NCBI GenBank assembly: GCA_027317055.1
Contig: DAHVFK010000001.1
Span: forward strand, 1 to 37,800
Direction: 5' to 3'
Source: Betaproteobacteria bacterium
GTDB taxonomy: Bacteria > Pseudomonadota > Gammaproteobacteria > Burkholderiales > SG8-39
DNA: 37,800 nt
This document shows, one piece after another, positions 2,925 to 22,933 of this stretch (its first letter is position 1; each line of letters starts with the position of its first letter). The position numbers and the translations under genes are program-made. The notes beneath the pieces are model-generated. The model did no database searches. It was not told the DNA's origin and saw only the letters and a program-made list of their open reading frames with translations.

Positions 2925-2938
2925 GGGCAGTCCTTTGG

Positions 2939-4469: not shown

Positions 4470-4489
4470 CGGTTAGCCCGGGGCGCCCC

Positions 4490-5755: not shown

Positions 5756-5757
5756 CC

Positions 5758-6117: not shown

Positions 6118-6122
6118 GATTT

Positions 6123-6338
6123 TCAGTCCTTTGGTTCGTTGTCCCAAACGCATGGCCAGCCCGCGGCCTCCTCGGCCGAGGCCCATTGCCTCAGCGCGGC
6201 GGCGGCGTACATCTGGCATTCGAGCACCGCGATCGTGCGCGGCGAACCGGTCAATCCGTGCGCGTGCTGCATCGCAGCAAACGCGCGGCTCATCAGCCGC
6301 TCGCGGTCGGTCCTGTCCGCCATGTCCATTCTCGCCAA
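6123..6338 (-). CDS. small hypothetical protein (start uncertain: TTG 6338, ATG 6329 or ATG 6323)
   Basis: ORF directly downstream of terL. The stop lies 5 nt before the next gene's start. Confidence 0.4.
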   Translation of the reverse strand: MARMDMADRTDRERLMSRAFAAMQHAHGLTGSPRTIAVLECQMYAAAALRQWASAEEAAGWPCVWDNEPKD

Positions 6339-6351
6339 TAGAAACGGCCGC

Positions 6352-7776
6352 CTATTGGGCGGTTCGCGGCGCGACGTGTTCCGGATGGGCGGCGGCTTTC
6401 GCGGCCTCAGCGGCCGTCTGCGCGGCCCGCCGGCGGTAGGTGTCGAAAATGCCCTCGCTCGAAATCGGCGCGACCAGCAAATCGGTCAGCGCCCACACCA
6501 GCGCATCGACCCGATCGGGCGACTGCCCGCGCTTGCGTTCGTCATCATCGGTCGTGAACGCGACCATCTGGTCCTCGAGCTGCGGGAACGCGCCCATGTG
6601 GTGCATCCGGCCCTGCTCATAGAGCGCCGCGACGGGCTCGGCCCGCACCGCCTTGCCGCGCGTCGCACGCACGGCGCGGTAGCTGACGTCGGGGTCGATC
6701 ACCCTGAGCGTCGCCTCGACCATCTCGCCGCCGTTGTTGACCTCGGCCACAACCCGGTCGGCGCGGTGCTCGCGGTACGCGGAAATCGCCAGCCGCGCCC
6801 ACTCCGCCGGCGCGTAATGGCCGCTGAGATCGGCGAGCACATAGCCGTGGCCGCGCGCATCCTTGCCGGCCACGATCAGCCCGGTTTCGTCGGCGTCCTC
6901 GCCCGACGTCGCCGCCGGGTCGATCGCCACAACGACCCGGGTCAAGGTCGGGTGCATCCCGTGCCGCAGCCGGCCGCGCTCGACGAGATCGCGGGTCCAC
7001 AACGCGCCCGGCACGTCATCGAGCAGCTCGGCGAGCAATTCCTGCCGTCCGAGCCGGGTGCCTTCGTACTTGCGCAGCAACTGCGCGAGGAACGGCGCCG
7101 GCAGGTTCGCCCGGTTCGCGTAGGTCGCCCCGCGCCGCACCGCCGTTGTCGGGTCCGCCAAGAGGCCGCGCACGATCGCCGTGGGCCGCGGCGTGGTGGT
7201 CACCATCGCCCGCGGATCGGCCCCGTGCCGCAGCCCGAACATCGCCTGATCCCAGGCTTCGGGATAGCGCCAGGCCGCGAGCTCATCAGCCCAGATCGTG
7301 TCGTGCTGCGGCCCGCGCAGCTGGTCCGGCCGCTCGGCCGAATAGGTCGCGGCCTGCGCCCCGTTGGGCCACACCAGCCGCTGTTTGCCTGGCTCATAGG
7401 TCGGGCGCAGCCAGGGCGCCGAGATTGCCAGGATGCCGGCCGGCCCCTCGATCATCACCTTGCGCACGTCCGCGCCGGTGCGCCCGATCAGCCCGATCCG
7501 GCGCCCTTTCCCGCTTTCGACGCGCTCGCGAACCCACTCGGCGCCCGAGCGCGACTTGCCGAATCCGCGCCCAGCCAGCAGCAGAAAGACGAACCACTCG
7601 CCATCGGGCGCGAGCTGGTCAGCCCTCGCCCACCAGCTCCGCCACGCCCACGGGAAGCTGCGCTGCTGTGCCGGGGTCAGCCGGCACAACACCGCCCGCC
7701 GCTGACCCGGCGTCAGTTGCGCCAGCCGTTCGACCGGCGACATCGTCGATGAGTTCGAGATTGCGCTGTCGGGCAT
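6352..7776 (-). CDS. terL: terminase large subunit
   Basis: Walker A-like LLLAGRGFGKS, Walker B-like TIWADELAAW and a C-terminal nuclease-like region. 474 aa. Alternative start is ATG 7743 (MSPVERL). Confidence 0.9.
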   Translation of the reverse strand: MPDSAISNSSTMSPVERLAQLTPGQRRAVLCRLTPAQQRSFPWAWRSWWARADQLAPDGEWFVFLLLAGRGFGKSRSGAEWVRERVESGKGRRIGLIGRTGADVRKVMIEGPAGILAISAPWLRPTYEPGKQRLVWPNGAQAATYSAERPDQLRGPQHDTIWADELAAWRYPEAWDQAMFGLRHGADPRAMVTTTPRPTAIVRGLLADPTTAVRRGATYANRANLPAPFLAQLLRKYEGTRLGRQELLAELLDDVPGALWTRDLVERGRLRHGMHPTLTRVVVAIDPAATSGEDADETGLIVAGKDARGHGYVLADLSGHYAPAEWARLAISAYREHRADRVVAEVNNGGEMVEATLRVIDPDVSYRAVRATRGKAVRAEPVAALYEQGRMHHMGAFPQLEDQMVAFTTDDDERKRGQSPDRVDALVWALTDLLVAPISSEGIFDTYRRRAAQTAAEAAKAAAHPEHVAPRTAQ

Positions 7777-7999
7777 CGTCCACTTGCAGAGGGCCGCCCT
7801 CGGGGCCGGTCAGGGTCACGTGCCGCAGGTCGGGAAGCGTCTTGCGGATCAGCCCGAGCGCCGCGGTCACCTGCGCCCCGCTCAGCAGCACCGTGCCGTC
7901 GACGAATGCGATCAGGCGGTTGATGAGCTGACTGGACCGGATCTTGTCACGCGCCCGCTCGTCGTGATTAGGCTGCCGGGTGCGCGCCGCCATGGTCAA
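7619..7999 (-). CDS. probable terminase small subunit
   Basis: Lies immediately upstream of terL and overlaps it. The N-terminal helical segment DKIRSSQLINRLIAFVDG..AQVTAALGLIRKTLPDL resembles small-terminase N-termini (recalled, not searched). The low-complexity tail overlaps terL. Confidence 0.5.
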   Translation of the reverse strand: MTMAARTRQPNHDERARDKIRSSQLINRLIAFVDGTVLLSGAQVTAALGLIRKTLPDLRHVTLTGPEGGPLQVDDARQRNLELIDDVAGRTAGATDAGSAAGGVVPADPGTAAQLPVGVAELVGEG

Positions 8000-8165
8000 A
8001 CTCCGGTAGCAGGATCGCGGCGAGGCCGGCCGCCGCCATCAGCACTTGGATCGCCGCCTGCAGCACCGCGCTATCGACGTGAACGCCACTGGCCGCCAAG
8101 AGCGCGCCGAGGCCGGCATAGGTCGAGGGCTCGCGCAACCGCGCCAAGAGGAACATCAAAATCAT
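7968..8165 (-). CDS. small hydrophobic membrane protein (65 aa)
   Basis: ATGA overlap with the upstream gene at 8162-8165. Largely hydrophobic sequence. Confidence 0.5.
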   Translation of the reverse strand: MILMFLLARLREPSTYAGLGALLAASGVHVDSAVLQAAIQVLMAAAGLAAILLPEFDHGGAHPAA

Positions 8166-8428
8166 TTCTTCGCCTCATCGATGCGCGGCGGGACTTGCCG
8201 GCTCCAATCGTGCTCCGCGCCCCACTCGGTTTCCCGCGCCCGCATGTCGTCGAGCGCCTCGTCGGGCTCATCGGGCTCGGGTTCGGCGTCGCCGTTGTCC
8301 TCGTCGTCACAATCGACCGCGGCTGAGGAATTGAGGCAGTTCTCGCACCAAAATCCGGGATAAAACAGCAGGCCGCCGCAGCCGTGGCATTCGCAGACCA
8401 GCACCTCGACAAAGCCCGGAAATTTCAT
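8162..8428 (-). CDS. zinc-ribbon protein with acidic C-terminal half (88 aa)
   Basis: Starts at ATG 8426-8428, which overlaps the recombinase stop (ATGA). Contains CECHGC...CENC motifs. The track N-terminal extension overlaps the recombinase gene and is rejected. Confidence 0.6.
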   Translation of the reverse strand: MKFPGFVEVLVCECHGCGGLLFYPGFWCENCLNSSAAVDCDDEDNGDAEPEPDEPDEALDDMRARETEWGAEHDWSRQVPPRIDEAKK

Positions 8429-9210
8429 CGATCGCAGCCGCCGGCCGCGCTGCGCGCCATCGCCCGGCTTACCTGCGTCGCTGTCCATTCGCCCCCCCAA
8501 GGTGCTGGGATCCCGCGCGCATTCAGTGCGCGGGCGAGTTCCCTTAACGAATTGCAACCCGCCATCAAAGCAGCGTCCAGATACGGACGCACGTCATTGG
8601 CGCGCTCGTCGGCGATCTTGCTCTTCGCCCGCCGCGCGCGATAGGCGCCGGCGCGGTTCGCGTTCAGCACGCCGCCGAGCCTGGTGATCGCCCGGCCTGA
8701 GCGGCGCGCAACCCATGCGCCGTCGCGCTCGATCGCCGCCTTGACCACAGCCAGCGCCGCCTTGGTGCGCTGCGAGGTCATACCGGCCTCGAATTCGGCG
8801 ATCAGCGCCAGCACGCCGATGATCAGCTTGCCGATCGGCCCCGGCGGAATATCCGGCAAATCGCAAAAGACCACGCCGCCGTCGCCGAGACCTTCGACCA
8901 GCGCCAGCAGAAACCGCGCGTTGCGGGCCAGCCGATCGAGCTTGGCGACGATCAGCACGCACCGGCGCAGCCGACATTCGGCCAGCGCCTTGGCCAACTC
9001 CGGCCGCTCGTTGCGCTTGCCGCTCTCGACCTCGGTATAGGTGGTGATGATCTTGCCGCCGACCGCCGCGATGTGGGCCGCCACCCGTTCCCGCTGGGCT
9101 TCCAGCCCGAGCCCGGAGGCGCCCTGCTTGTCGGTCGAGACCCGGTAGTAGGCGACGAACCGTGGCGAGCCAGGCGCACCACGCGCTCGCGCTGCCGCCG
9201 GCGCTGCCAT
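8425..9210 (-). CDS. small serine recombinase (resolvase/invertase family) with C-terminal HTH
   Basis: FVAYYRVSTDKQG catalytic-serine motif, then VLIVAKLDRLARN and a helix-rich C-terminus. 261 aa. Confidence 0.9.
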   Translation of the reverse strand: MAAPAAARARGAPGSPRFVAYYRVSTDKQGASGLGLEAQRERVAAHIAAVGGKIITTYTEVESGKRNERPELAKALAECRLRRCVLIVAKLDRLARNARFLLALVEGLGDGGVVFCDLPDIPPGPIGKLIIGVLALIAEFEAGMTSQRTKAALAVVKAAIERDGAWVARRSGRAITRLGGVLNANRAGAYRARRAKSKIADERANDVRPYLDAALMAGCNSLRELARALNARGIPAPWGGEWTATQVSRAMARSAAGGCDR

Positions 9211-9224
9211 CCTCGCCCCGTCAC

Positions 9225-9308
9225 ATTATCGGTGGTCCGTTCGGCAGAAAGAGACAGAGCGCCGGTTTGTTTAATGCCGATCTTTACGGTGCGCGCGTCT
9301 TTTTCTGC
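9225..9308 (-). promoter_or_regulatory. candidate promoter/operator upstream of the recombinase-terminase chain: -10-like GATAAT plus a 12-bp inverted repeat pair
   Basis: On the minus strand, GATAAT (9225-9230) lies 14 nt before ATG 9210 with no good -35. GCAGAAAGAGAC (9244-9255) and its near-perfect inverse (9297-9308) flank 41 bp in the only AT-richer gap of this arm. Confidence 0.35.
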
Positions 9309-9341
9309 GATCCTGCCGTGTAGTATGCCCGACGACCCCGA

Positions 9342-9749
9342 TCACTCTAAGGCGCAGCACCCTGGATCTATTCGCTCCGGGCTCAGCTCCGGCCAGTTGC
9401 ACACGACCAGGTCCTCGCCCGGCGTCGCGATCGGCTGCCGCCAGCACAGCGCGCCGAGCCCGACGCGGAACAACCACTCGCCCCGCTGGCTCGGGGTCAT
9501 CACCTCCCACGCGGTGATCACCAGGCGGATGCGCGGCGCCGGGACCGGCCGCCCCAGGCTCGCCGAGATCCACCGCTCGCTGCAACCGAGCATCGCCGCG
9601 ATCGAGCGCTGCCGCAGCCCGATCGCGCGCGCCCGCTGCCGCCAGCTCAGCTGATCGGGAACCACGGGAGCGCGGTCATCCAGGGCATACTGCCACCGCT
9701 CTCGGCCGGCGCGGGCTCGACCCTCACCTCGATCCGCGGCGGAGGACAT
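9342..9749 (-). CDS. HTH DNA-binding protein (start uncertain)
   Basis: LSWRQRARAIGLRQRSIAAMLGCSERWISASL looks like a helix-turn-helix. ATG 9747-9749 was chosen. It overlaps the 3' end of the upstream ORF. Confidence 0.45.
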   Translation of the reverse strand: MSSAADRGEGRARAGRERWQYALDDRAPVVPDQLSWRQRARAIGLRQRSIAAMLGCSERWISASLGRPVPAPRIRLVITAWEVMTPSQRGEWLFRVGLGALCWRQPIATPGEDLVVCNWPELSPERIDPGCCALE

Positions 9750-9907
9750 GGCAAGATCAGGCCGCCCGGGCCGGCGCCATAGCACCAGCACTCGGCCATC
9801 GGCCGCAGCAGCCGAGCGTGACAGGGGCGCCCGGCCCCGGCCTCGCTGCGCAGCTGGCAGATCCGCAGCCGGATCGCATCGAAATCGTCCACCACCGGCT
9901 CAGCCAT
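9647..9907 (-). CDS. small Cys-containing hypothetical protein
   Basis: ATG 9905-9907 overlaps the upstream stop by 8 nt (ATGGCTGA). The 3' third overlaps the next gene, so the true end is unclear. Confidence 0.4.
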   Translation of the reverse strand: MAEPVVDDFDAIRLRICQLRSEAGAGRPCHARLLRPMAECWCYGAGPGGLILPCPPPRIEVRVEPAPAESGGSMPWMTALPWFPIS

Positions 9908-10364
9908 CGGCCGCCTCCCGCTCCACCGCCTGCTCGCTCACCGAGACGCCCAGCTCGTCGCGCACCCGCTTGACCGGATCGCCCCGGCGCGGTGCCGCAA
10001 ACGCCGCCGCGTTCCGCTCGCCCCACGCCGCGATGTTGGCTCTCGCCTCGCGGCACGCCGCCTCGACATAGGCGATTTCCGCAGGCGTCGGCGCCGGCCG
10101 GCGTGCCGCTGGCGGCGGCTTGCCGAAGTGTCGCCGCCACATCGCCTCGGCCTGCCCGGCAAGCCGCGCAGCGAACCACAGACGGTCCGGGTCGATCGGG
10201 CTGCGATCTTCGAACGCACCAAGCATAACGCGCCGCCATCCGTAATCGTAGGCATGCGCAAACCACCGCTCCTCAGTAGTACGCTCTGCATTCGACTGTT
10301 GGAGGAGGAGCGTCCGGTGCCCGATAGCTGGAAATTCCGGCGCCGCCATTGGCAGTACGAACAT
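9900..10364 (-). CDS. hypothetical protein (154 aa, start uncertain)
   Basis: ORF in the operon direction with high third-position GC. It overlaps the 3' end of the replication gene by ~90 nt. Confidence 0.45.
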   Translation of the reverse strand: MFVLPMAAPEFPAIGHRTLLLQQSNAERTTEERWFAHAYDYGWRRVMLGAFEDRSPIDPDRLWFAARLAGQAEAMWRRHFGKPPPAARRPAPTPAEIAYVEAACREARANIAAWGERNAAAFAAPRRGDPVKRVRDELGVSVSEQAVEREAADG

Positions 10365-11229
10365 TTACCTCTCCAGGCTGATCGAGCCAGCGGTCCTCGG
10401 TGAGCCAGCGGGCCGGGTTGCACCACTGCCGGTCGGCCGGTTTGGTGGCGATGTACCGGGCGGCGCCCGCCAGCAATGCGGCGGGTGTGGCCCCGCGAGC
10501 GATGGCGCGGCGGTAGGCCTGCGCGGCAGCCGGCCTCGCGACCTTGTGCGGCCAGGCGGCCCACCACTCGGCGAAGCCTGGTGGGCTCAGCGGGGTCGGT
10601 GCGTGCTGACCTTCTTCCCCGAGATTGTTTTCAACCTCGCGCGCGCGATTCGAGCGAAGCGAGATATCTACTCTTCTCTTATCTAAGAGGGGGCGCGTTT
10701 CATCGTTGATATCATGGGCGTTTTCGGCCGATGAAACGCTCGATGAAACGCATGAAACACCGACCCTAAATGTTTCATCGTTATCGGGTGCTGACCTAGT
10801 TTCGGGGTGCTGCGAGCCGTCGATCGGCAGCATCATCGACAGTTGACGGGGTCGTGCCCGGTGAGCCCTCACCCGCTCGGTGCTTTTGGCGACAGAGCGC
10901 ACCGCTGCCTGCGCCGCCGCATAGCCGGCCTTGACCGCGCCGGCGCCTTGATGCTGAGCCCAATTGCGGAGCGTCGTGCCGACGACGATCGCCTTTTCGA
11001 TAAAGACATCCCAGATGCGCCGCAGCAGGTCGAGCGGATAGTCGGTGCCAGCGGCGACCTCCTCGAGGTCGAACCCGGCGAGCGATCCATCATGCTGCCC
11101 GGCGAAATCGAGCGCCCAACTGTAGAGTGCCCACACATGTCCGGCCGGGCAGCCGGCCTTTGCGGCGACGGCGCGCCACTTCGGGTTAGCTGGTGCGCCA
11201 TGCTTTAGCTTCAGCCAAAATCCGCTCAT
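10273..11229 (-). CDS. replication initiation / replisome-organiser-like protein
   Basis: The C-terminal W-rich motif FAEWWAAWPHK...AARYIATKP..RQWCNPARWLTEDRWLD is common in phage replication proteins (recalled). Iterons are embedded mid-gene. ATGA-coupled to the upstream 52-aa ORF. Confidence 0.55.
   Translation of the reverse strand: MSGFWLKLKHGAPANPKWRAVAAKAGCPAGHVWALYSWALDFAGQHDGSLAGFDLEEVAAGTDYPLDLLRRIWDVFIEKAIVVGTTLRNWAQHQGAGAVKAGYAAAQAAVRSVAKSTERVRAHRARPRQLSMMLPIDGSQHPETRSAPDNDETFRVGVSCVSSSVSSAENAHDINDETRPLLDKRRVDISLRSNRAREVENNLGEEGQHAPTPLSPPGFAEWWAAWPHKVARPAAAQAYRRAIARGATPAALLAGAARYIATKPADRQWCNPARWLTEDRWLDQPGEVNVRTANGGAGISSYRAPDAPPPTVECRAYY
10655..10779. repeat. candidate replication origin: AT-richer dyads plus five GATGAAAC iterons inside the replication gene
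   Basis: GTTTCATC at 10697-10704 and 10772-10779. GATGAAAC at 10730-10737 and 10742-10749. CATGAAAC at 10751-10758. Palindromes AGATATCT (10662-10669) and CTCTTA-TC-TAAGAG (10676-10689). Confidence 0.6.
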
Positions 11230-11384
11230 GGCTCGCCCCCGACGAAACTAGTTTCGAGAGCGCAGACCGCGGTCATCGTGCTGCGGAAAGCAATCGCCAG
11301 CCGAAAACCAAGTTCCCGGCTTAGCCAATAGCCGTTGACCCCGTAAGTCGCATACGCACGCTGGCGCGGCGTCAGTTTGCTCAT
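11226..11384 (-). CDS. small ORF (52 aa, below the ORF-track cutoff)
   Basis: ATG 11382-11384 is preceded by GGGGAG at good spacing. The stop overlaps the replication-gene ATG (ATGA). Hand-translated MSKLTPRQRAYATYGVNGYWLSRELGF... Confidence 0.45.
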   Translation of the reverse strand: MSKLTPRQRAYATYGVNGYWLSRELGFRLAIAFRSTMTAVCALETSFVGGEP

Positions 11385-11420
11385 TTCTGATCTCCCCTTC
11401 CCCGAGAGCAGTGCGGCCGG

Positions 11421-11648
11421 CTAGCTCCACCAGCCGGTGATCGTGAACCCAGTGTTGGCGGTGACCGCGACGATGCGCGGCCCGACATAGAGGCCGGGCG
11501 GGACGGCGCCGAGCGCCACGGTTTCGCCGCCGGCGGTAACGACGGTCAGCACCGTGCCGCTGGCGCCGGCGACGAGCAGCGCCTCGACGGCGGTCGGAAA
11601 CGTCCCGGTGCCGGCGCCGAGCGAGAAGGCGTGGTTGAAGCTGCGCAT
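11421..11648 (-). CDS. small beta-rich hypothetical protein (75 aa)
   Basis: ATG 11646-11648 lies 5 nt after the upstream stop. MRSFNHAFSLGAGTGTFPTAVEALLV... The track N-terminal extension is rejected. Confidence 0.5.
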   Translation of the reverse strand: MRSFNHAFSLGAGTGTFPTAVEALLVAGASGTVLTVVTAGGETVALGAVPPGLYVGPRIVAVTANTGFTITGWWS

Positions 11649-11653
11649 CGCGC

Positions 11654-12094
11654 TCACCAGCGCCGGGCGGCGAAGGCCTGCCCGGTGGTGCCGCCGTAAA
11701 GACTGACCGCACCCGCCGGGTGGTAGCCGTCCGGTGTGACGAAGATCGCGCCGGCGGCAACCGGGATAGACGCGCCGCCGGCGGTCGCCACCCCGACATC
11801 GCACACATAGAGCGGGTGCGTGAGGTCGAGATTGGCGACGAGATAGCCGTTGGTCGGGACGGCCCCGCCGAACAGTGTCTGCGCGCTGCCGCCGGCCGTG
11901 ATCGTGCCCGAGCCGTCCGATGCGGGCGCCGCGGCGGCGTTGATCACCGGCATCGGCGCACTCGAGCTGACCGGCGTGGCGACCCCGCCGACGAGCGCCG
12001 CCTCGACATGCTCCGGCACCAAATTGGACTGCGCGTCGCTCTGTGTGGCGATCGTCTGCACGGCGGAATTGGCGTCCTTGATTAGCAGGGCCAT
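11654..12094 (-). CDS. hypothetical protein (146 aa)
   Basis: ATG 12092-12094 is preceded by GAGGAG. It is the first gene after the intrinsic terminator. Confidence 0.6.
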   Translation of the reverse strand: MALLIKDANSAVQTIATQSDAQSNLVPEHVEAALVGGVATPVSSSAPMPVINAAAAPASDGSGTITAGGSAQTLFGGAVPTNGYLVANLDLTHPLYVCDVGVATAGGASIPVAAGAIFVTPDGYHPAGAVSLYGGTTGQAFAARRW

Positions 12095-12105
12095 ACGCTC
12101 TCCTC

Positions 12106-12144
12106 AGAGAAAAAAGAGGCCGGGAGGGAGCGTCCCGCCCGGCC
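12106..12144 (-). terminator. Rho-independent terminator closing the secreted-protein moron
   Basis: Minus strand reads GGCCGGGCGGGA-CGC-TCCCTCCCGGCC (11 bp with one mismatch) followed by TCTTTTTTCT. Confidence 0.75.
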
Positions 12145-12152
12145 GCGTTAAC

Positions 12153-12557
12153 CTAAAAGCTGCGGGCTTCGACCCAGACGGAGGCCTGGCCGGTGCAATA
12201 GACCGAGACGCCGCCGATCGGGATGTAGCCTGGCGGCGTGGTGTAGGCGACGTTGGCTCCGGTCACCGGATCATGGCCGAACGGGAAGCCATGATTTGGG
12301 CCGGCATTGCCCATCGCCGCGTAGTCGTCCTCGGCCCAGCATTGATTGAGCCCGTTTTGTGCGGCCGGAACGGCGAGCGTGAAGCCGTGCTGCGGTTTGA
12401 AGTTCCAGGTGATGACGGTCGGAACATTGGCGGTCACGTACTCCGACCAGTCGCAGACGTAGACGTAGCCGGGGGTGCACGGCACGGCATAGGCCGCGCC
12501 GGCGAACGCGGTGGCCGAGAGGCCAAAGAGGGCGGCCGAAAGCAACAAGCGTTTCAT
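12153..12557 (-). CDS. small secreted Cys-containing protein (134 aa)
   Basis: MKRLLLSAALFGLSATAFAGAAYA-VP signal peptide from ATG 12555-12557. The mature part has 4 Cys. Confidence 0.7.
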   Translation of the reverse strand: MKRLLLSAALFGLSATAFAGAAYAVPCTPGYVYVCDWSEYVTANVPTVITWNFKPQHGFTLAVPAAQNGLNQCWAEDDYAAMGNAGPNHGFPFGHDPVTGANVAYTTPPGYIPIGGVSVYCTGQASVWVEARSF

Positions 12558-12761
12558 CGTGGGTAACCTTGCCAGGAAGGGGCGGATCGGGAATGTGCGG
12601 CGCGCTTGCCCCGGCGGCGCGCCGAACCTGATTGAAAGCGAGAGCGTCGGCGGCATAGGCTCGGGCGTTCCTTGCCAGGAACCGCCCGTCCCGGAGAGGC
12701 GTAAAAGCTCCGGGAGCCGGCGGCGGCCGGAAATGCGCGCCAAGCCCGGCCGCCGTCGCGC

Positions 12762-13406
12762 TCATGCGGCGAGCGCGCCCGCCGGTCTGCGCAGCCACCA
12801 GGCAAGCCCGAGGAGCGACACGCCGAGTAGCGCCAGCGTGCTTGGTTCGGGCACGGCCGCCCGGCGGCCCACGATCTCGCCCGAGGAGATCACCGCCGTC
12901 TCGCTGCCGGTGGTGTGCGACAGCGCCGACAGAAAGACCCCGCGCGACAGGTTTTCGAGGGCGATGTCGATCGCCGCGGCAGCGCCGGCGAAGGTCGAGA
13001 GGAACGTGGCGTCGCCGCTGCGGGCGCTGATCGTCAGCGTGCCGATCAGATCGGGGTTCGGCGAATCGTCCTTGAGCAGCGACCAGCCGACCGTGCCGGC
13101 GAGGCTGTCGCCATCGACGCCATGATAGGCGAGCGCCTGGCTGCCATGGATCGCAAAGTTGCCGCCGGAGATCGTTCCGCTGGTGAGCCAGGCGAGCGGC
13201 CCCAGCGTGTAGCCGCCGAGGTCGGAACCAAAGAGCGCGGTTCCGTGCGCGGCTGCGCCGGCGACGTTCAGCGCGCCGCCCCCGGTGCCGGAAAAGCTGT
13301 AGTAGCCGGCGGCGCTGTTGGCGATGGTGATTTGCGCGGCGTGCGCGGCGCCGGCGGCGAGGCCAATGGCGCAACCGAGCGCCAGGGCTGGAATCCTTGT
13401 CTTCAT
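12762..13406 (-). CDS. PEP-CTERM sorting-domain protein (214 aa) with Sec signal peptide
   Basis: N-terminus is MKTRIPALALGCAIGLAAGAAHA-AQ. C-terminus is VPEPSTLALLGVSLLGLAWWLRRP, i.e. PEP motif, TM helix and basic cluster. AAGGAGA RBS upstream of ATG 13404-13406. Confidence 0.85.
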   Translation of the reverse strand: MKTRIPALALGCAIGLAAGAAHAAQITIANSAAGYYSFSGTGGGALNVAGAAAHGTALFGSDLGGYTLGPLAWLTSGTISGGNFAIHGSQALAYHGVDGDSLAGTVGWSLLKDDSPNPDLIGTLTISARSGDATFLSTFAGAAAAIDIALENLSRGVFLSALSHTTGSETAVISSGEIVGRRAAVPEPSTLALLGVSLLGLAWWLRRPAGALAA

Positions 13407-13473
13407 GGCCAGGTCGTCTCCTTGCCAGGGGTGTGCCGCGGAACCGCCGCGGCGCGGATCTGGGCTGTCGCGC

Positions 13474-13938
13474 TCACTGCGCGGCATCGGCGAACAGAGT
13501 GGCGAGATCGCTGGCCCGGTGCGGCCACACGCTGATCCGCAGCAGCGGCTTGTCGCTGTAGCGCTTGATGACCTGGCCCTCGACGATCTGCTTGTCGTCG
13601 GCCCAGAGCATCCCGTTGCACGCGTCGCAGATTTTGCCGAGGTTGTCCCAATCGGGCTTGACGGTCGGCGCGACCATGCCGAGCAGCGCCTCGCGCCGTT
13701 TTTTGCCAGAGAAGGAAGTCGGGATCGGGAAATCCGCCTCGATCAGGACGCGAAGCGCGCAGGTAAAGAGCGGGCGGCCGTCCATCGCCTTTTGCGCGGC
13801 GAGCCGTAAATTTCCCTCGTACTGCGCGGTCTTCTCGTCGGGGTGGGTGACGAAGTAACCATTCGGCAGGCGGTCGCGACGCACCGCGCCCTTGCCTCGG
13901 GGATGCCCGATCATCTCGACGACAAGCGGCCAGGTCAT
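13474..13938 (-). CDS. rusA: RusA-family Holliday junction resolvase
   Basis: 154 aa from ATG 13936-13938. KPDWDNLGKICDACNGMLWADDKQIV matches the RusA catalytic-region pattern. Confidence 0.85.
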   Translation of the reverse strand: MTWPLVVEMIGHPRGKGAVRRDRLPNGYFVTHPDEKTAQYEGNLRLAAQKAMDGRPLFTCALRVLIEADFPIPTSFSGKKRREALLGMVAPTVKPDWDNLGKICDACNGMLWADDKQIVEGQVIKRYSDKPLLRISVWPHRASDLATLFADAAQ

Positions 13939-14171
13939 GCCGCGGCACCTGCGCAGCGCGAGCACAGGCCCGGCGCTACCCAGTGACAGCCGCCCGCGCA
14001 GGTGCGCTCGTCGGTGCAGCCGCAGATGCGGCATTGCCGGTCATCGACCGCCGCCCGCTCTGGGGTCGGTTTGCGCGGGGCGAAGAGATCGGCCGCCGCG
14101 CGCAGCTGTTGCGCCGTGGGCCGCGTCTTCTTCCAGCGATTCGTTCCGCGCAGGAAGCCGAGCGACCTCAT
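13935..14171 (-). CDS. Cys-rich putative zinc-binding protein (78 aa)
   Basis: CRICGCTDERTCAGGCHWVAPGLCSRC. ATGA overlaps at both ends. Confidence 0.6.
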   Translation of the reverse strand: MRSLGFLRGTNRWKKTRPTAQQLRAAADLFAPRKPTPERAAVDDRQCRICGCTDERTCAGGCHWVAPGLCSRCAGAAA

Positions 14172-14620
14172 TGGACCAGCTCCTCGGTCTTGCGCGGCCG
14201 GCCGCGGCGCTTCGGCGCATCGGGCTCGGCGCTCAGCGGGGCGGCCTCGCTATGTTGTCCGCGCCGCTCTGACACCAGCTGGCCGAGCCGGTAGCCCGGT
14301 TCGACCGGTTCCTCGCGCCGGGGTTTCGGCGTCTTTGGCTGATGGTCGAACAGGTCGCCCTGATCCCACACGCCGAGCTCGTCGCAATAGGCGGCAAGCG
14401 CGCTCAGGAAGTCGTTGCGCTTGTCGTCTTCCATGTTCCTGAGCTTCAGCGCCATCTTCAGCGCGGCGCGGTTGAAGCCGTAATCCTCGGCCTCCTGATA
14501 GAGGTTTCCGAGGTCGCTGCGGGCTAGATCGGCGAGCGCCTTCTTGCTATCGATGCGCCGCACCAAGCCCTTGAGCTTGCTGATATTGATCCGCGCGCCG
14601 TCGCTACTATCTTCCGCCAT
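14168..14620 (-). CDS. GapR/DUF2312-like DNA-binding protein with C-terminal AT-hook-like KRRGRPRK
   Basis: LKGLVRRIDS...LGNLYQEAEDYGFNRAALKMALKLRNMEDDKRNDFLSALAAYCDELGV follows the GapR (UPF0335) pattern recalled from Caulobacter. GGAGT RBS. Confidence 0.6.
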   Translation of the reverse strand: MAEDSSDGARINISKLKGLVRRIDSKKALADLARSDLGNLYQEAEDYGFNRAALKMALKLRNMEDDKRNDFLSALAAYCDELGVWDQGDLFDHQPKTPKPRREEPVEPGYRLGQLVSERRGQHSEAAPLSAEPDAPKRRGRPRKTEELVQ

Positions 14621-14646
14621 GACGGAACTCCCCTTCCGTTGTTGAC

Positions 14647-14720
14647 CGCCCGGTTACCCCGCCGGGCGACTTTCGGGTCCCGGCCCGGAGCGTGATCCCC
14701 CGACTGGTCCGCTCCGGGCC
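14647..14720 (-). other. two GC-rich hairpins in the 279-nt non-coding gap downstream of cro
   Basis: CGCCCGG(14647-14653)/CCGGGCG(14662-14668). GGCCCGGAGCG(14682-14692)/CGCTCCGGGCC(14710-14720), a perfect 11-bp stem with a 17-nt loop. No U-tract follows either. Confidence 0.5.
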
Positions 14721-14899
14721 GGCCCGCGCCGCACGCCGGGGGGCGGTGGCGCATCTCGGTCCATGTCGCCGATTCGTTCTCTGCTGCCGGTCTGGGCCGG
14801 TCCAGCGAGCCGCTAAGCTGCAACCCACGATGGGCGTAAGGATTGCGCTCAGGCGCAGTGCGTGTGCGCATGCTATGGCGCGGGGATGCAGAAGCACGT

Positions 14900-15109
14900 T
14901 CACGCCCTGCGCGCGTCGTCAGCCGCTCGCAGGAAATCGTCCGGCGTCACTTCGCCAGCGGTCGCCTCTTTAATTCGGGCGGCAACGTCGCGGCCGGGCC
15001 AAGTGCGCCCCTCGCAAAGGTCCGTTAGATGCGAGGGGGAGATCCCCACGCGCCCAGCGAACACGAAACGTTTGGTGCGCTCCCGGCGGAGCCAATCGGC
15101 AAGCTGCAT
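14900..15109 (-). CDS. Cro-like HTH regulator (69 aa)
   Basis: FAGRVGISPSHLTDLCEGRTWPGRDVAARI helix-turn-helix. Divergent from the XRE repressor across a 59-bp gap. Confidence 0.7.
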   Translation of the reverse strand: MQLADWLRRERTKRFVFAGRVGISPSHLTDLCEGRTWPGRDVAARIKEATAGEVTPDDFLRAADDARRA

Positions 15110-15160
15110 TGGACGAATATCGGTGACACCGAATATTCGGTCAAGATGTAATTTTTCGGT
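15109..15160. promoter_or_regulatory. genetic switch: face-to-face overlapping promoters and palindromic operators
   Basis: Plus strand: TTGGAC(15109-15114)-N17-AATATT(15132-15137). Minus strand: TTGACC(15139-15144)-N17-GATATT(15116-15121)-N6-ATG. Operators: CGAATATCGG (15114-15123), CCGAATATTCGG (15129-15140) and half-site TTTTCGG (15153-15159). Confidence 0.55.
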
Positions 15161-15168
15161 CCCCGCGA

Positions 15169-15552
15169 ATGGCGTCCGCTGGCCTGCCGAGGCAGGCTTC
15201 GGCGATGGCTAGGAAGCGGATCAAGAGCGCCGACCGGCCGCCAGCGCTGCCGCATTTTCTGAAGCAATGGCGGAAATTTCGGAAGCTGACGCAAGAAGAG
15301 CTGGCATCGCGGGCGGGAACCACGGCGTCAACAATCTCTGAGCTGGAACACGGAAACCAGCGCTATACGCAGCAGCTTCTTGAAGCGCTTGCGCGGGAGC
15401 TGCAAACGCACCCCGGTCTCATCCTGTTGCGGGCGCCAGACATAGAGGCCGAAGCGTGGCTCATTCTTGAGGGCCTCCCGGCGCTCGAGCGCAAACGCGC
15501 GATGGACCTGCTTCGCGTGCTCGCCGACCGACCGCAACAAGCCGCCGAGTGA
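15169..15552 (+). CDS. XRE-family repressor (cI-like), no peptidase domain; alternative start ATG 15205
   Basis: LKQWRKFRKLTQEELASRAGTTASTISELEHGNQ is a classic XRE HTH. Divergent from the cro-like gene. Confidence 0.8.
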   Translation: MASAGLPRQASAMARKRIKSADRPPALPHFLKQWRKFRKLTQEELASRAGTTASTISELEHGNQRYTQQLLEALARELQTHPGLILLRAPDIEAEAWLILEGLPALERKRAMDLLRVLADRPQQAAE

Positions 15553-15776
15553 GCGCACCGCCCGCCGCCGACCGCGCGGTGCGCTACGCTCTGATCGCCG
15601 TCCTTCTTCCTCTGCTTCTCACGCGAGGCGCAGCGATACCGCCTGTGTCGGCACGCGAGCACGCCGCTATCTGCTGCAAAACCTGCTCGGCCGGGAAGGC
15701 ATGCGGGGACTCGTGCATTAGTCGGGATAAGGCCTGCCATCGCCGAGCCGGCTGCGCCTGCGATCGCCGGAAATAA
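15549..15776 (+). CDS. small exported/membrane-anchored Cys-rich peptide (75 aa, 8 Cys)
   Basis: GTG start overlaps the repressor stop (GTGA). Hydrophobic IAVLLPLLL segment followed by CCKTCSAGKACGDSCISRDKACHRRAGCAC. Confidence 0.5.
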   Translation: MSAPPAADRAVRYALIAVLLPLLLTRGAAIPPVSAREHAAICCKTCSAGKACGDSCISRDKACHRRAGCACDRRK

Positions 15777-15829
15777 TTTCGGCAGGAGCGAAGTTTTCGG
15801 TTGCAGTGAATTTCGGTCTCACCTAAATT
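15777..15829 (+). promoter_or_regulatory. early-right promoter candidate overlapped by three TTTCGG direct repeats
   Basis: TTTCGG at 15777-15782, 15795-15800 and 15811-15816. TTGCAG(15801-15806)-N17-TAAATT(15824-15829). AT-richer intergenic gap. Confidence 0.45.
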
Positions 15830-15856
15830 CCCTCTGTCAACGCGACGGAGGGGAAG

Positions 15857-16171
15857 ATGGCGTCATTTGCGGGATTGAGCCTCAGATCGGCCGGCGAGCG
15901 CGCTTACGACCGGCGCAGCGCCGAGGCCGAGCTGGCGGATATCGAGCGGGGCGAGGAGGCGTTTCTGCGCGCCGTCGATGTGTGGGCGCGGAAGCACCAT
16001 GGCGATCGGGACGCGATCTTCAATTATCTCGGCGATTTTCTCTGCGACTACTTTCACGGTCGCCGGCGCGACGCGGCAGAGGAACTCGGCCTCGATGCCG
16101 ACGAGGCCGATAATTTCGGCGCAACCCGTGATCGCATGATCGCCACGTTGGTGGCGGGAGGCCGGCTGTGA
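15857..16171 (+). CDS. hypothetical early protein (104 aa)
   Basis: GGAGGGG RBS. First gene after the candidate promoter. Confidence 0.6.
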   Translation: MASFAGLSLRSAGERAYDRRSAEAELADIERGEEAFLRAVDVWARKHHGDRDAIFNYLGDFLCDYFHGRRRDAAEELGLDADEADNFGATRDRMIATLVAGGRL

Positions 16172-16479
16172 GCGCCGGGTTTCCGCGCCTGTCGCCGGTC
16201 GAGGCCGCGATCTACGGCACGCCCGAAGCCAGGGCGCGCGACCGCGCGCCGATCATGCGCAAGCCGAGCTACGGCATGGCGCTGCTGTTTACGCTGCTGC
16301 GATCCGTCCGCCGCGCCGGCCCCGACGCGCTCGAAATCGACAAGTTGCGCTTTGTCATGGTCGACGGCGGCGACACCTCGAACGGTCTGACCCTCCGCCA
16401 CACGCGCCTCTTCCGGCTGGACGGGACCGGGCAGACCTACCGGCTGATCGTCGAGCCGGTGCCGGAGACGCACCGATGA
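16168..16479 (+). CDS. hypothetical early protein (103 aa)
   Basis: GTGA overlap with the upstream gene. In the operon direction. Confidence 0.5.
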   Translation: MSAGFPRLSPVEAAIYGTPEARARDRAPIMRKPSYGMALLFTLLRSVRRAGPDALEIDKLRFVMVDGGDTSNGLTLRHTRLFRLDGTGQTYRLIVEPVPETHR

Positions 16480-16670
16480 GCGCCGCCCGCCCGTTCAACA
16501 GCAAGCGGCAGGCGCATTGCGAGGGCAAGGCCAGGTTCGCCAGCCCGGCGCTCGCCCGCCGCCGCGCCGTGGCCTTTTGCCGGCCGACCCGGCGCCACGC
16601 CCGGCGGACGGCCGTGGCCTACCGCTGCGAATATTGCGGCGGCTGGTATCTGGCGGAGCGCGGACCATGA
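16476..16670 (+). CDS. small basic protein with C-terminal CxxC (64 aa)
   Basis: ATGA overlaps at both ends. YRCEYCGGWYL motif. Confidence 0.5.
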   Translation: MSAARPFNSKRQAHCEGKARFASPALARRRAVAFCRPTRRHARRTAVAYRCEYCGGWYLAERGP

Positions 16671-16990
16671 GCGCCGACCCGGCCGAGGCGCGGGTCTACG
16701 GCTTCACCCGTGGGACGATGCGCGACTGCCTGATGGTGATCGAGGAGCTGACCGCGGCCAACGGGATCAGCCCGAGCTTTGCCGAGATCCGGCGCGAGCT
16801 GGACCTGGCGAGCATGTCGCAGGTGGCGCGCCTGATCGCCGCGCTCGAATTCCGTGGCCATCTGGCCCGGCGCCCCGGCCGCGCGCGCACCCTGACCGTG
16901 CTGCGCTCGATCCCGCTGCCCGAGGAGCCGGAGATCGAGCTGACCGCGAGCGGCTGGCTCGCGGCGCAATCGCTGGAGAGGTCGCCATGA
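16667..16990 (+). CDS. LexA-N-terminal-like winged-helix DNA-binding protein lacking a peptidase domain (107 aa)
   Basis: GISPSFAEIRRELDLASMSQVARLIAALEFRGHLARRPGRARTLTV matches the LexA DNA-binding domain pattern. Start ATG 16667 overlaps the upstream stop. Confidence 0.6.
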   Translation: MSADPAEARVYGFTRGTMRDCLMVIEELTAANGISPSFAEIRRELDLASMSQVARLIAALEFRGHLARRPGRARTLTVLRSIPLPEEPEIELTASGWLAAQSLERSP

Positions 16991-17166
16991 AGCCGCAGAC
17001 GCTGTCCGCGCCGGATCGGCGACCCGGGCGCGACGGGCGGACCCCGGCCGAGAAAGCGCTCGACCAGGGCGGCAACCTGCTGTGGTGGTCGGTGATCGGG
17101 GTCATCGGCAGCATCGGGTTCTGCTTTTACCTGATCTGGGCGATCGCCCTGGCGGGCTCGCCATGA
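16987..17166 (+). CDS. small single-TM membrane protein (59 aa, below the ORF-track cutoff)
   Basis: ATGA overlaps at both ends. LLWWSVIGVIGSIGFCFYLIWAIALAG. Confidence 0.5.
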   Translation: MKPQTLSAPDRRPGRDGRTPAEKALDQGGNLLWWSVIGVIGSIGFCFYLIWAIALAGSP

Positions 17167-17315
17167 AGGGCCGGCTGAGGCGGCTCTTCGATCTTGCCTG
17201 TATTGCGGTGGTGTCGCTGTGGCTGCTGCTGCTGCTGGCGGTGTGCACCGTGGTGCTGCTGGTCGCCTGGGTGCTGCGCCCGCTGTTGCATCCCTGTCGA
17301 GCGTGGAGGCCGTGA
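17163..17315 (+). CDS. small single-TM membrane protein (50 aa)
   Basis: ATG 17163 overlaps the upstream stop. ACIAVVSLWLLLLLAVCTVVLLVAWVL. Confidence 0.5.
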   Translation: MKGRLRRLFDLACIAVVSLWLLLLLAVCTVVLLVAWVLRPLLHPCRAWRP

Positions 17316-17641
17316 TGGACCAAATTCCCCAGCGATCCGCGATGGCGGTGGACGCCGGAAATCAGCAGAAACGCCGCCATGCGACCGGACGCCAACCAGG
17401 AGGCGACCATGTAACCGAACCCCACGTTCCGATACGCCGCCGTGCGGAGGGCGATTTGGCTCCCGGCTCGGGCGGACGGCCGGGGGAGGAAATGCCCCCG
17501 GCACCGTCGCTCGCCGCCGCAATCGCCGAGCTTGAACGGGTATTGCCCGTCACCGGCGGGAAGCGCCAGGCGGCGATCACCGAGAAGCTGCGGCGGCTGC
17601 GCGCGGTGCAGGCCTGGCGCAACGAGGGGCCCGCGCCATGA
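17316..17641 (+). CDS. hypothetical protein, start uncertain (ATG 17316 or ATG 17492)
   Basis: Only the last ~50 codons show high third-position GC and helical sequence. The stop overlaps the next ATG. Confidence 0.35.
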
Positions 17642-17841
17642 GCGCGCGCATTCAGGCGGCGTGCCGGCGCTGCGGCGGCGGCGATCTCGGAGCCGAGGTG
17701 ACCGTGTGGGGCGTGTTCGAAGTTGGCGCGCTCGTCAACGTCGACCTCAGTCAGTCGATTGAGGTCAAGCGGCGCGGCTGGGCCATTTGCCTTGACTGCG
17801 GCGAGGCCCAGCCGATCCAGGCCGAGGAGAGCACCACATGA
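17638..17841 (+). CDS. zinc-ribbon protein (67 aa)
   Basis: CRRCGGG ... CLDCGE. ATGA overlaps at both ends. Confidence 0.55.
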   Translation: MSARIQAACRRCGGGDLGAEVTVWGVFEVGALVNVDLSQSIEVKRRGWAICLDCGEAQPIQAEESTT

Positions 17842-18056
17842 CGAGCATCTCGCCCAAAGGCCCGGCCGATTGCCTGGCGCACTGCCGAATATGGTTGCCG
17901 GATACGGAGTACGACATGGCCGTCCTCCTGATCTCCCTCCTCGTCGAGACCCAGAAGCACGCTGCCACGGTGGCGGCGATCGAGGAAAGTCACCGTCGCG
18001 CGATGGCGATCATCGATCGGCATCTCTCGGCCGAAAAGGAACCGTCCGATGGCTGA
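17838..18056 (+). CDS. hypothetical protein (72 aa)
   Basis: Coupled ORF in the operon direction. Confidence 0.5.
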   Translation: MTSISPKGPADCLAHCRIWLPDTEYDMAVLLISLLVETQKHAATVAAIEESHRRAMAIIDRHLSAEKEPSDG

Positions 18057-18246
18057 CTGGATCGTCTGGTCGGAGGAGCACGAGGCGTGGTTGGGGCCGA
18101 ACCACCAAGGCTACAGGGGCTCGATCGTCGCCGCCGGCCGCTATGACGAGGACATCGCCAAGCGGATCGAGCGCAACGCGAACTACCGCGCGGCCTTGCC
18201 GCAAGCGGTGGCGATGCCCGACCCGCTGCCCCGGCTGACGCTGTGA
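18049..18246 (+). CDS. hypothetical protein (65 aa)
   Basis: Coupled ORF in the operon direction. Confidence 0.5.
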   Translation: MADWIVWSEEHEAWLGPNHQGYRGSIVAAGRYDEDIAKRIERNANYRAALPQAVAMPDPLPRLTL

Positions 18247-18446
18247 GGTTCACCGAGCACGCGATCCTGCGCCGCCTCGCCCAGCAGGCTGCCGCTTTTT
18301 ACGAGGCGATGACGCCGCAGAAGCAGGCGAGCCCCGAGGGTCGCGAGCTGATGCGCTGGCTGACTGTGCTCGGCGCCTGGGACGCCGAACACCCTGCGGC
18401 GGCCGAGCCGCGGCTGCCGCTCCTGGAAGGACCGAAAGATGCCTGA
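18243..18446 (+). CDS. hypothetical protein (67 aa)
   Basis: GTGA overlap with the upstream gene. Confidence 0.5.
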   Translation: MRFTEHAILRRLAQQAAAFYEAMTPQKQASPEGRELMRWLTVLGAWDAEHPAAAEPRLPLLEGPKDA

Positions 18447-19356
18447 TCCGACCTTACGGACGGTCAGCGCCAGCCAGGCGGCGGCGCTGTTCGACCAGAG
18501 CCCCTACTGCACGCGCTGGATGCTATGGCAGCATTTTGCGCGAGGCCTGCCGCTCGGTGCCGAACCGGACGAGCGGATCGAATGGGGCACCCTGTTGCAG
18601 GACGACATCTTGCGGGCGACGGCGCGGCGTTACCGCTTCGAGGTCGAGGAAAACTCCGAGAGCATCTACCTGCGCCGCGGCCCACTCGGGGCGACGATCG
18701 ATGGCCGCATGCGTGTCCCCGATCAGGGCGACGTCATCATTGAGGCGAAAAACATAGACTGGCAGCGCTGGCGCGACACCTGGTCGGAGAGCGCCGCGGC
18801 GCCGCACGTCGAGATCCAGATGCAGGTCCAGCTCTTTTCCGCAACGGCCGATCGGGGGGTCATCGCGGCCTTGGTCGGCGGCAACGAGCTGAAATGCTAT
18901 GAACGCGAGACCAACCGCGCGCTGCAACGGGAATTGCAGGATGCCGCCGGCGATTTCCTCGCCAGCGTCGTCGCCGGCAAGGAGCCCGACCCGCTCGGCT
19001 CGCCGATCGAACTGCCGCTGCTGGCGGCGCTCTATCCGGCGACCGAAGCGGGCGCCGTTGTCGAGGCGCATGGCGACGAGGAGCTTGCGCTGGCGGTCCG
19101 GCAATATGCTTGGGCGGCCGAACAGGAAGCATTCGCCGGCAAGCTCAAAAATCAGCTGAGGGCAAAATTGCTGGGCCGTCTCGGCGCCGCCGCGGAGCTG
19201 CATGTCGATGGCGGTCGGGTCTATGCCAAGCGCTCGCCGATCGCGCCGCTGATCTGCGCGCCGCATGCCGAGCCGCGCGAGCTGCGCCACGCCTCGGTGC
19301 AGGTCCGGCTCAAACCGGTGATCATCGATCCCGCCGTCGAGGAGATGTTTGCATGA
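18439..19356 (+). CDS. YqaJ-like viral recombinase exonuclease (lambda Exo functional analogue)
   Basis: The N-terminal TVSASQAAALFDQSPYCTRWMLW pattern and VIIEAKN PD-(D/E)xK-like motif. Immediately upstream of recT. Confidence 0.8.
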   Translation: MPDPTLRTVSASQAAALFDQSPYCTRWMLWQHFARGLPLGAEPDERIEWGTLLQDDILRATARRYRFEVEENSESIYLRRGPLGATIDGRMRVPDQGDVIIEAKNIDWQRWRDTWSESAAAPHVEIQMQVQLFSATADRGVIAALVGGNELKCYERETNRALQRELQDAAGDFLASVVAGKEPDPLGSPIELPLLAALYPATEAGAVVEAHGDEELALAVRQYAWAAEQEAFAGKLKNQLRAKLLGRLGAAAELHVDGGRVYAKRSPIAPLICAPHAEPRELRHASVQVRLKPVIIDPAVEEMFA

Positions 19357-22883: not shown

Positions 22884-22933
22884 TGTTTCACGTGAAATCG
22901 CCGCCCGGGCACGCCTTTCGGGAGGCAGGGGCC

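Follow-up and report, generated by a model that had tools for sequence, protein, structure and literature searches.

What does a temperate phage gain from carrying a protein that is addressed to a surface-sorting enzyme of its host? The question is raised by PEP214, a gene in the 37,800-nucleotide stretch of contig DAHVFK010000001.1 analysed here (the whole of this stretch is called the window below), whose predicted product of 214 amino acids (aa) begins with a Sec-type signal peptide and ends with a PEP-CTERM sorting signal. A preprint describes exosortases as the enzymes that cleave PEP-CTERM (bioRxiv 10.1101/2023.06.07.544157). The original prediction for this locus, made from sequence alone, had described a phage-borne two-gene "moron", composed of PEP214 and a small secreted neighbor that we call sec134, which might remodel the surface of a lysogen. 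We favor, with a probability of roughly 55%, a related reading in which PEP214 is mobile, non-essential phage cargo that would be transcribed early, exported and exosortase-sorted and would alter the cell surface during infection or lysogeny. The following features define the gene and its two targeting signals.

12762-13406, minus strand: PEP214 coding sequence (CDS), a 214-aa PEP-CTERM pre-protein (translation, TIGR02595, PF07589 and alignment with the homologue P0003).
13338-13406, minus strand: predicted Sec-type signal peptide of PEP214, codons 1-23, MKTRIPALALGCAIGLAAGAAHA (sequence inspection and hydropathy).
12786-12854, minus strand: PEP-CTERM sorting signal of PEP214, codons 185-207, made of VPEP, a 17-residue hydrophobic helix and RR, with 7 residues after it (hidden Markov models and P0003 alignment).

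Is PEP214 a genuine member of the PEP-CTERM family? Its start codon is backed by the alignment with P0003, a homologue in a second phage. On inspection, the N-terminus, MKTRIPALALGCAIGLAAGAAHA with predicted cleavage ahead of AQ, has a basic n-region, an h-region of 15 residues and an AHA cleavage motif, and the same n/h/c layout is kept in P0003, where the alignment places ARA before EQ. A Kyte-Doolittle hydropathy scan finds hydrophobic windows at residues 5-24 and 189-205 only and thus no internal transmembrane segment. PEP214 was also considered as a lipoprotein (LALGC, residues 8-12). We discarded this candidate because LALGC makes a poor lipobox, follows an h-region that is too short, and has a cysteine that P0003 does not keep. 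The C-terminus consists of VPEPSTLALLGVSLLGLAWWLRRP followed by 7 residues, so that the protein end reads VPEPSTLALLGVSLLGLAWWLRRPAGALAA; the layout is VPEP-STLALLGVSLLGLAWWL-RR-PAGALAA, with VPEPSTLALLGVSLLGLAWWLRR as the tail core. Scoring the C-terminus against TIGR02595 was the check that had been proposed for it, and it passes, with 22.5 bits for the full-length protein (cut-off 16); the tail alone reaches 28-29 bits on this model and 35.6-37.2 bits on PF07589 (cut-off 20.7), a match that is also precomputed for PEP214 in a public protein collection. The TIGR02595 match stops at residue 207 of 214, which puts the basic cluster within about 10 residues of the C-terminus, and a PEP motif, a transmembrane helix and a basic cluster close to the C-terminus are together the hallmark of the family (PMC1569441). 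The proposal of a 214-aa protein with Sec and PEP-CTERM signals thus holds by translation, by signal-peptide inspection and by both profile models.

The mature domain between the two signals spans about 160 residues. It is acidic (pI 4.8), lacks Cys and has an abundance of Gly, Ala, Ser and Thr; residues 24-184 contain 0% Cys, 0.6% Lys, 2.5% Arg, 11.8% Ser and 8.7% Thr. This composition (Cys-free, poor in Lys and Arg, with abundant Ser and Thr) agrees with what Haft et al. 2006 describe for PEP-CTERM passengers, namely few basic residues and values of about 8.8% for Ser, 8.8% for Thr and 0.4% for Cys (PMC1569441). Against the curated full-length PEP-CTERM subfamilies, PEP214 scores under every cut-off (27.6 bits for PepA, NF033554, cut-off 80; 31.1 for THxN, cut-off 85; lower for the others), and since it stays so far below the PepA cut-off it is not a PepA orthologue. 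An AlphaFold2 model, built from a 2-sequence alignment, has a predicted local distance difference test score (pLDDT) of 40.2 and is too poor for a fold search. By every feature that could be tested in the sequence, PEP214 is an ordinary member of the PEP-CTERM family; being carried by a phage is what is unusual about it.

How firmly, then, can the gene be assigned to a phage? Its flanks are as follows.

13474-13938: RusA, upstream of PEP214 (PF05866, E = 4e-22).
10273-11229: replication initiation protein, downstream of the terminator that follows the cassette (phrog_270, E = 5e-15).

The window has a G+C content of 68%, contains no tRNA genes, and by profile matches encodes a MuF-like protein, a portal, the large terminase TerL, a small serine recombinase, a divergent CI-like/Cro-like pair, RusA, YqaJ, RecT, a tyrosine integrase and a pectate-lyase-like tailspike. 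Because of this gene content, and because structural genes reach past both window ends in a source contig of 38,565 bp, the window is a near-complete temperate phage genome of about 38.5 kb. In its early-right operon, PEP214 follows the Cro-like gene, a GapR-like gene and rusA, and its placement in a phage, between rusA and the replication genes, is confirmed by the two flanking matches and the temperate gene set around them.

Additional insight comes from where the gene is absent. A set of 80 TerL-related prophage loci, about 1.4 Mb of almost wholly phage DNA, contains no PEP-CTERM tail matching either of two tail regular expressions. In the closest relative (L003), RusA overlaps the next gene and the cassette is absent; early regions are mosaic (RusA is 43% identical), and the exact adjacency is not reconstructable. 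Among the matches listed from a search of 5.8 billion proteins, the one PEP214 homologue is P0003 (222 aa, 70% identical), and distant relatives of this low-complexity protein may exist. P0003 is carried on a 15,978-bp contig (L001) of the Joint Genome Institute (JGI) from a related temperate phage that has the integrase (about 74% aa identity) and several early-left genes in common with the window. There it sits in the early-left operon, between ERF and YqaJ, separated by 6 nt from the gene upstream of it and by 27 nt from the one downstream, and its locus has neither the 134-aa gene nor the terminator. Scans with the 2-sequence alignment found no further homologue in IMG/VR, in 185,579 GTDB species genomes or in JGI metagenome contigs, and tblastn against 50,697 GenBank phage records returned nothing for PEP214. 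Since P0003 travels alone in a different operon, DNA similarity between the two loci stops at the CDS borders, and the ratio of nonsynonymous to synonymous substitution (dN/dS) is 0.36 overall (dS 0.75), PEP214 is, as far as two homologues can tell, a mobile, non-essential single-gene cargo that has moved between operons of related phages under purifying selection.

These observations also bear on whether PEP214 is passenger DNA, i.e. a host PEP-CTERM gene acquired by illegitimate recombination that plays no role for the phage. Such an origin would suit an N-domain of no recognizable function, and few host genes evolve faster, or are duplicated or lost more often, than those for PEP-CTERM proteins (PMC1569441). 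We regard it as very improbable: the homologues are intact in two phages, at different loci, with the dS and dN/dS values just given; no cellular homologue appears among the matches listed from the 5.8 billion proteins or in the 185,579 species genomes; and PEP-CTERM genes recur among phages, with 30 families among those listed from IMG/VR.

The comparison of the homologues also speaks to what the tail is for. VPEP, helix and basic cluster are all kept between PEP214 and P0003 while flanking residues diverge, and dN/dS falls from 0.40 in the mature domain to 0.22 in the tail. Could the tail nevertheless be a mere anchor, leaving PEP214 as an exosortase-independent inner-membrane protein of type I topology that faces the periplasm and blocks the entry of superinfecting phage DNA? 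T4 Imm, P22 SieA and HK97 gp15 are DNA-entry blockers with which such a protein could be compared. The predicted topology fits (a signal peptide, one C-terminal helix and a positive-inside cluster), the early operons that hold the gene in both phages are expressed when exclusion functions act, and the exosortase of the host is itself presumed. A plain anchor would have no need of a PEP motif, though, and the conservation of the whole tripartite signal including VPEP, the tail scores above curated cut-offs and the at least 118 other phage-borne proteins that keep a complete signal make this explanation improbable.

Those 118 proteins come from a scan of IMG/VR with one degenerate DNA pattern for VPEPxxLALLG, which yielded at least 120 contigs (L083-L202) with 121 matches listed. 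True complete tails, with helix and basic cluster 22-35 residues before the stop, account for 118 of the 121 listed matches, so these PEP-CTERM genes number at least 118, and in truth more; they end open reading frames (ORFs) of mostly 200-290 aa. Among the matches listed, 99 ORFs are of at least 150 aa. Their 84 distinct proteins group into 30 clusters by N-domain, of which the largest has 46 members, and about three quarters pass a crude signal-peptide test. All seven proteins tested (six IMG/VR cluster representatives and P0003) pass TIGR02595, and none reaches a curated full-length subfamily cut-off. None of the listed IMG/VR proteins is related to PEP214 in its N-domain, and two of the representatives found nothing by tblastn in the GenBank phage records.

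Are the carriers truly phages? By phmmer, a P22-type portal or a large terminase is present in 27 of the 120 listed loci, and many of the listed genes are carried by P22-like genomes of about 42 kb, at a distance of up to about 3 kb from the portal or terminase. Pfam matches among 110 large neighbors include P22_portal (7), TerL_ATPase (4), Terminase_6N (4), Phage_portal (3) and capsid families (4), along with tail tube, baseplate hub and methylases; helicase-primase also occurs among the neighbors. A P22 portal and TerL lie within about 3 kb of the PEP-CTERM gene in two 42-kb contigs (L121 and L138), phage genes stand on both sides in L084, L108 and L116, and they stand upstream in L147, where a beta-helix protein lies downstream. 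Host contamination was considered for these matches and ruled out by the phage hallmark genes on both sides. Three of the genes are placed as follows.

2472-3107 of L121, minus strand: IMG/VR PEP-CTERM gene.
1223-1759 of L138, plus strand: IMG/VR PEP-CTERM gene.
8317-9042 of L108, plus strand: IMG/VR PEP-CTERM gene.

In L108, an unrelated phage with a GC fraction of 0.62, the gene is flanked by a RecE-like exonuclease and, just downstream, by a primosomal protein (8317-10574); the latter belongs to phrog_9327, which also matches the replication protein of the window, and insertions may recur immediately ahead of replication genes. The original prediction had known of no such phage function, and this stands for the literature, in which we found no paper on phage-encoded exosortase substrates; the gene is not a one-off, however, given the further genes in IMG/VR. 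In other words, phage-borne PEP-CTERM genes are common in environmental phage sequence, occur in many unrelated genomes, and are essentially undescribed in the literature. A broader proposal can be offered tentatively, with somewhat less than even confidence: phage-encoded exosortase substrates would be a widespread, overlooked cargo in soil, sludge and biofilm, and phages of exosortase-bearing bacteria would routinely insert their own PEP-CTERM proteins into the exopolysaccharide-linked surface, excluding competitors or tuning aggregation and thereby directly shaping the architecture of flocs and biofilms.

When would PEP214 be expressed? The answer depends on the spacers and signals around the cassette.

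13407-13473, minus strand: spacer from the RusA stop to the PEP214 start, 67 nt, with a 7-bp hairpin that has no T-run; a single copy of CCTGGCAAGG precedes the ATG by 13 nt (fold, motif search).
12558-12761, minus strand: structured spacer from PEP214 to sec134, 204 nt, which forms three strong hairpins and contains CCTGGCAAGG twice as well as an in-frame upstream ATG (12656) (fold, motif search).
12153-12557, minus strand: sec134 CDS, a 134-aa predicted secreted ORFan with a signal peptide and 4 Cys in its mature part (inspection, database searches).
12108-12144, minus strand: intrinsic terminator, an 11-bp interrupted G+C-rich stem (12118-12144) followed by TCTTTTTTCT (12108-12117) (fold z = -2.4).

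The cassette had been called terminator-bounded, which is correct for its 3' side (12108-12144) and fails on its 5' side, where the hairpin of the RusA spacer is no terminator and the fold is unremarkable (z = +0.4). A consensus scan of 12000-13600 found no sigma-70-like promoter; across 1-19000 it recognizes one such site alone, the Cro-side promoter (15144-15116). A sigma-54 consensus scan gave 36 matches against 60.5 expected, with nothing above chance and no convincing site in the cassette. Proteobacterial host PEP-CTERM genes have a sigma-54 promoter, a PrsR site and a long upstream spacer in 99 of 167 genes, an arrangement that is typical and not defining (PMC1569441). Regulation of PEP214 by sigma-54 and PrsR on this model was tried and rejected: the spacer is 67 nt long, and the TGGCA of the repeat motif is wrongly spaced to a GC element. 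The cassette does not stand out in base composition: its GC fraction is 0.68 and its third-position value (GC3) 0.82-0.85, as elsewhere in the window.

It is against this background that an autonomous lysogenic-conversion moron has to be weighed, i.e. a unit with its own promoter that is expressed from the repressed prophage and alters the surface or biofilm behavior of the lysogen. A strong terminator right after the cassette, unusually large gaps around it (67, 204 and 58 nt, against 4-nt overlaps of the neighboring genes) and its absence from the closest relative are all what such a unit would produce, and host PEP-CTERM genes are typically single-gene units (PMC1569441). We nonetheless consider it unlikely, as the consensus scan that does detect the Cro-side promoter finds none upstream of PEP214, no upstream terminator exists, GC and GC3 match the rest of the phage, and the homologue in L001 is embedded in an early-left operon with small gaps and no terminator. 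What survives of the two-gene moron is its own terminator and its absence from the 80 related loci; what does not is the pairing and the autonomy, given that P0003 travels without sec134, that no promoter was found, and that composition is uniform. As read from sequence, the cassette is not a moron in the classical sense of an autonomous transcription unit, because it has neither an upstream terminator nor a detectable sigma-70-like or sigma-54-like promoter.

The spacers also contain repeats. The motif CCTGGCAAGG occurs three times in the window, always within the cassette (13420-13428, 12670-12678 and 12567-12575, minus strand) and each time followed by an ATG after 9-13 nt; the 9-mer used in the search, CTGGCAAGG, was observed 3 times against 0.22 expected, and none of 100 shuffles gets to 3. 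The middle copy is buried in an 11-bp hairpin ahead of the in-frame ATG of a 167-aa call for sec134, and the first 116 nt of the 204-nt spacer fold at -64.7 kcal/mol (z = -2.1). A weaker signal is TGAGCGCGAC at 13467-13476 and 12755-12764 (minus strand), which spans the stop codons of RusA and PEP214 at the start of both spacers. These repeats may represent a duplicated junction or ribosome-binding sequence.

Returning to the reading of PEP214 as early-transcribed, exosortase-sorted cargo, we can outline a mechanism. PEP214 would have no promoter of its own and would be transcribed with the early-right genes, and the terminator at 12108-12144 would end or attenuate this early transcript ahead of the replication genes. 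The packing of P0003 into an early-left recombination operon, with its gaps of 6 and 27 nt, argues for expression early in the lytic cycle or at induction and not from the prophage. PEP214 would then be exported by Sec and kept in the inner membrane by its C-terminal helix until a host exosortase cleaves it at the PEP motif, transferring it to the cell surface or the exopolysaccharide layer, where it would change the infected or lysogenic cell. Since the gene sits in early operons of both phages, the likeliest payoff would be receptor masking, which would exclude superinfecting phages or keep progeny phages from adsorbing to debris; altered aggregation or an altered biofilm matrix would be an alternative. 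The dependence on a host exosortase and the surface-remodeling role that had originally been put forward thus appear plausible. For Microcystis, one preprint connects cyanophage resistance with a mutation that lies upstream of a PEP-CTERM gene of the host, which is compatible with PEP-CTERM proteins mattering in phage adsorption and is no evidence for PEP214.

Several points weigh against this mechanism. The surface-masking role is drawn by analogy and is speculative. The 67- and 204-nt gaps and the terminator would equally fit an autonomous unit, and an own promoter is possible, as promoters of high-G+C Alphaproteobacteria can evade a consensus scan. The N-domain offers no functional clue, with no PDB match by sequence search (E < 0.1) and no Pfam or PHROG match. 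Finally, the exosortase of the host is presumed, and the host assignment rests on TerL identities of 60-67% and a few other common genes.

Who, then, is the host? The closest TerL relatives, at these identities, are prophages in metagenome-assembled genomes of Stellaceae and other uncultured soil Alphaproteobacteria, and L003, the best of them, also has portal, MuF, capsid-region genes, resolvase and RusA in common with the window. The host is probably an alphaproteobacterium like these Stellaceae relatives. A GapR-like gene in the early-right operon (a sub-threshold match) fits an alphaproteobacterial host. A 12,741-bp contig (L002) from SRR12886061 is 100% identical to window positions 10221-22961, and the source of that data set is a rock biofilm in the Marsberg copper mine, Germany (PMC7849705). 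The niche fits, as bacteria of soil, sediment and biofilm are those that typically have PEP-CTERM systems (PMC1569441). The L002 contig ends 78 bp past the integrase, a likely attP position. For an integrated copy with host flanks, an integrase look-up gave the two known phage contigs alone.

What of the second gene of the cassette? The expectation of a 134-aa secreted, Cys-containing protein followed by a strong intrinsic terminator was accurate: sec134 (12153-12557) has 4 Cys, its N-terminus is MKRLLLSAALFGLSATAFAGAAYA, a typical signal peptide with predicted cleavage before VP, and the terminator ends 13 nt ahead of the start codon of the next gene (12094). Among the 5.8 billion proteins sec134 matches itself alone; no relatives occur in IMG/VR, the 80 prophage loci or the 120 PEP-CTERM-bearing viral loci, and there is no match in Pfam, NCBIfam or PHROG and nothing below E = 0.1 in a PDB sequence search. 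The AlphaFold2 model (pLDDT 34.6) is too poor for a fold search. The in-frame ATG at 12656 would prepend 33 residues, MPPTLSLSIRFGAPPGQARRTFPIRPFLARLPT (12558-12656, minus strand), and one public (Logan) gene call does give 167 aa. The 134-aa start is more likely, because the extension would bury the predicted signal peptide. A Tat signal in the 167-aa version (ARRTFPI) was considered and rejected, as 16 residues separate the RR from the h-region and the motif copy of the upstream ATG is inside the 11-bp hairpin. Nothing ties sec134 functionally to PEP214, and it would be a separate, unrelated secreted ORFan that shares the insertion slot by chance.

Three other genes of the window are worth recording.

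11654-12094, minus strand: 146-aa protein of phrog_22789, unknown function (PHROG match).
14168-14620, minus strand: GapR-like DNA-binding protein in the early-right operon, two genes ahead of RusA (PF10073, 22.5 bits, just below the cut-off of 22.6).
8425-9210, minus strand: small serine recombinase, Resolvase plus helix-turn-helix, 261 aa, between the replication and packaging modules (profile match).

The 146-aa protein and two small ORFs lie between the terminator and the replication initiator; 36 homologues of the former stand directly after TerL in related prophages, so the gene is displaced in the window. The serine recombinase is present besides the tyrosine integrase (22026-22883) and occurs in the closest prophage, L003, too; it may be an invertase, a resolvase or a second integrase. 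Additionally, the distance from TerL to portal is about 3.3 kb in the window (3033-6351, minus strand) and about 0.7 kb in L003; the stretch contains a 474-aa protein with a partial DUF3383 match and may be another insertion, in the packaging/head module.

How does PEP214 compare with known systems? The chromosomal substrates of EpsH/XrtA-type exosortases, such as the floc protein PepA of Zoogloea resiniphila and its counterpart in Aquincola tertiaricarbonis, are the obvious reference (PMC1569441; PMC9850573; Gao et al. 2018 via PMC12642866). PEP214 resembles host substrates in its predicted signal peptide, in a small Ser/Thr/Gly-rich, Cys- and basic-poor domain with no homology elsewhere, in having the PEP motif, the helix and a basic cluster no more than 10 residues from the C-terminus, and in its biofilm/soil setting. 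It differs from host PEP-CTERM genes in being phage-encoded, in its early operon, and in having no sigma-54/PrsR motifs and no spacer of more than 200 nt upstream. Another parallel is SasX of Staphylococcus, a sortase substrate with an LPXTG anchor that is encoded by a phiSPbeta-like prophage and affects aggregation and colonization. SasX and PEP214 are alike in being surface proteins encoded by a temperate phage yet dependent on a C-terminal sorting transpeptidase of the host (for PEP214, by prediction), although SasX is a Gram-positive protein attached covalently to the wall by sortase A, whereas PEP214 would use the PEP-CTERM/exosortase route in a Gram-negative host. Lambda Bor and Lom, T5 Llp and the Cor proteins of phi80 and N15 are phage-encoded envelope lipoproteins or outer-membrane proteins that often block receptors, and Llp is made early in infection. 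Like them, PEP214 is predicted to be small, secreted and non-essential and to ride a host export pathway, and the timing of Llp is that proposed for PEP214; unlike them, it carries an exosortase signal in place of using the Lol or Bam pathways, and it has no sequence similarity to them. Our full-text literature search found no study of phage-encoded exosortase substrates. The sole mention found of a PEP-CTERM domain on a putative virus-like mobile element is a single sentence, given without analysis, on HOG10, a conserved gene of the Dehalococcoides IME1 elements (bioRxiv 10.64898/2026.09.15.751708), which differ from the present phage in element type (filamentous or budding-virus-like) and in host.

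PEP-CTERM proteins and exosortases are required for floc formation in activated-sludge bacteria and for motility and biofilm formation in one cyanobacterium (PMC9850573, PMC12188702), and the roles of individual PEP-CTERM substrates are still mostly obscure. The gain from the window itself is modest: one clear, well-placed example, with predicted function and host, that adds a candidate Gram-negative counterpart to the prophage-borne sortase substrates. If phages commonly deliver their own substrates, then phages would be direct players in the surface biology of flocs and biofilms, and these small, self-contained phage genes would offer simple handles on the role of a single PEP-CTERM protein and on its need for an exosortase.

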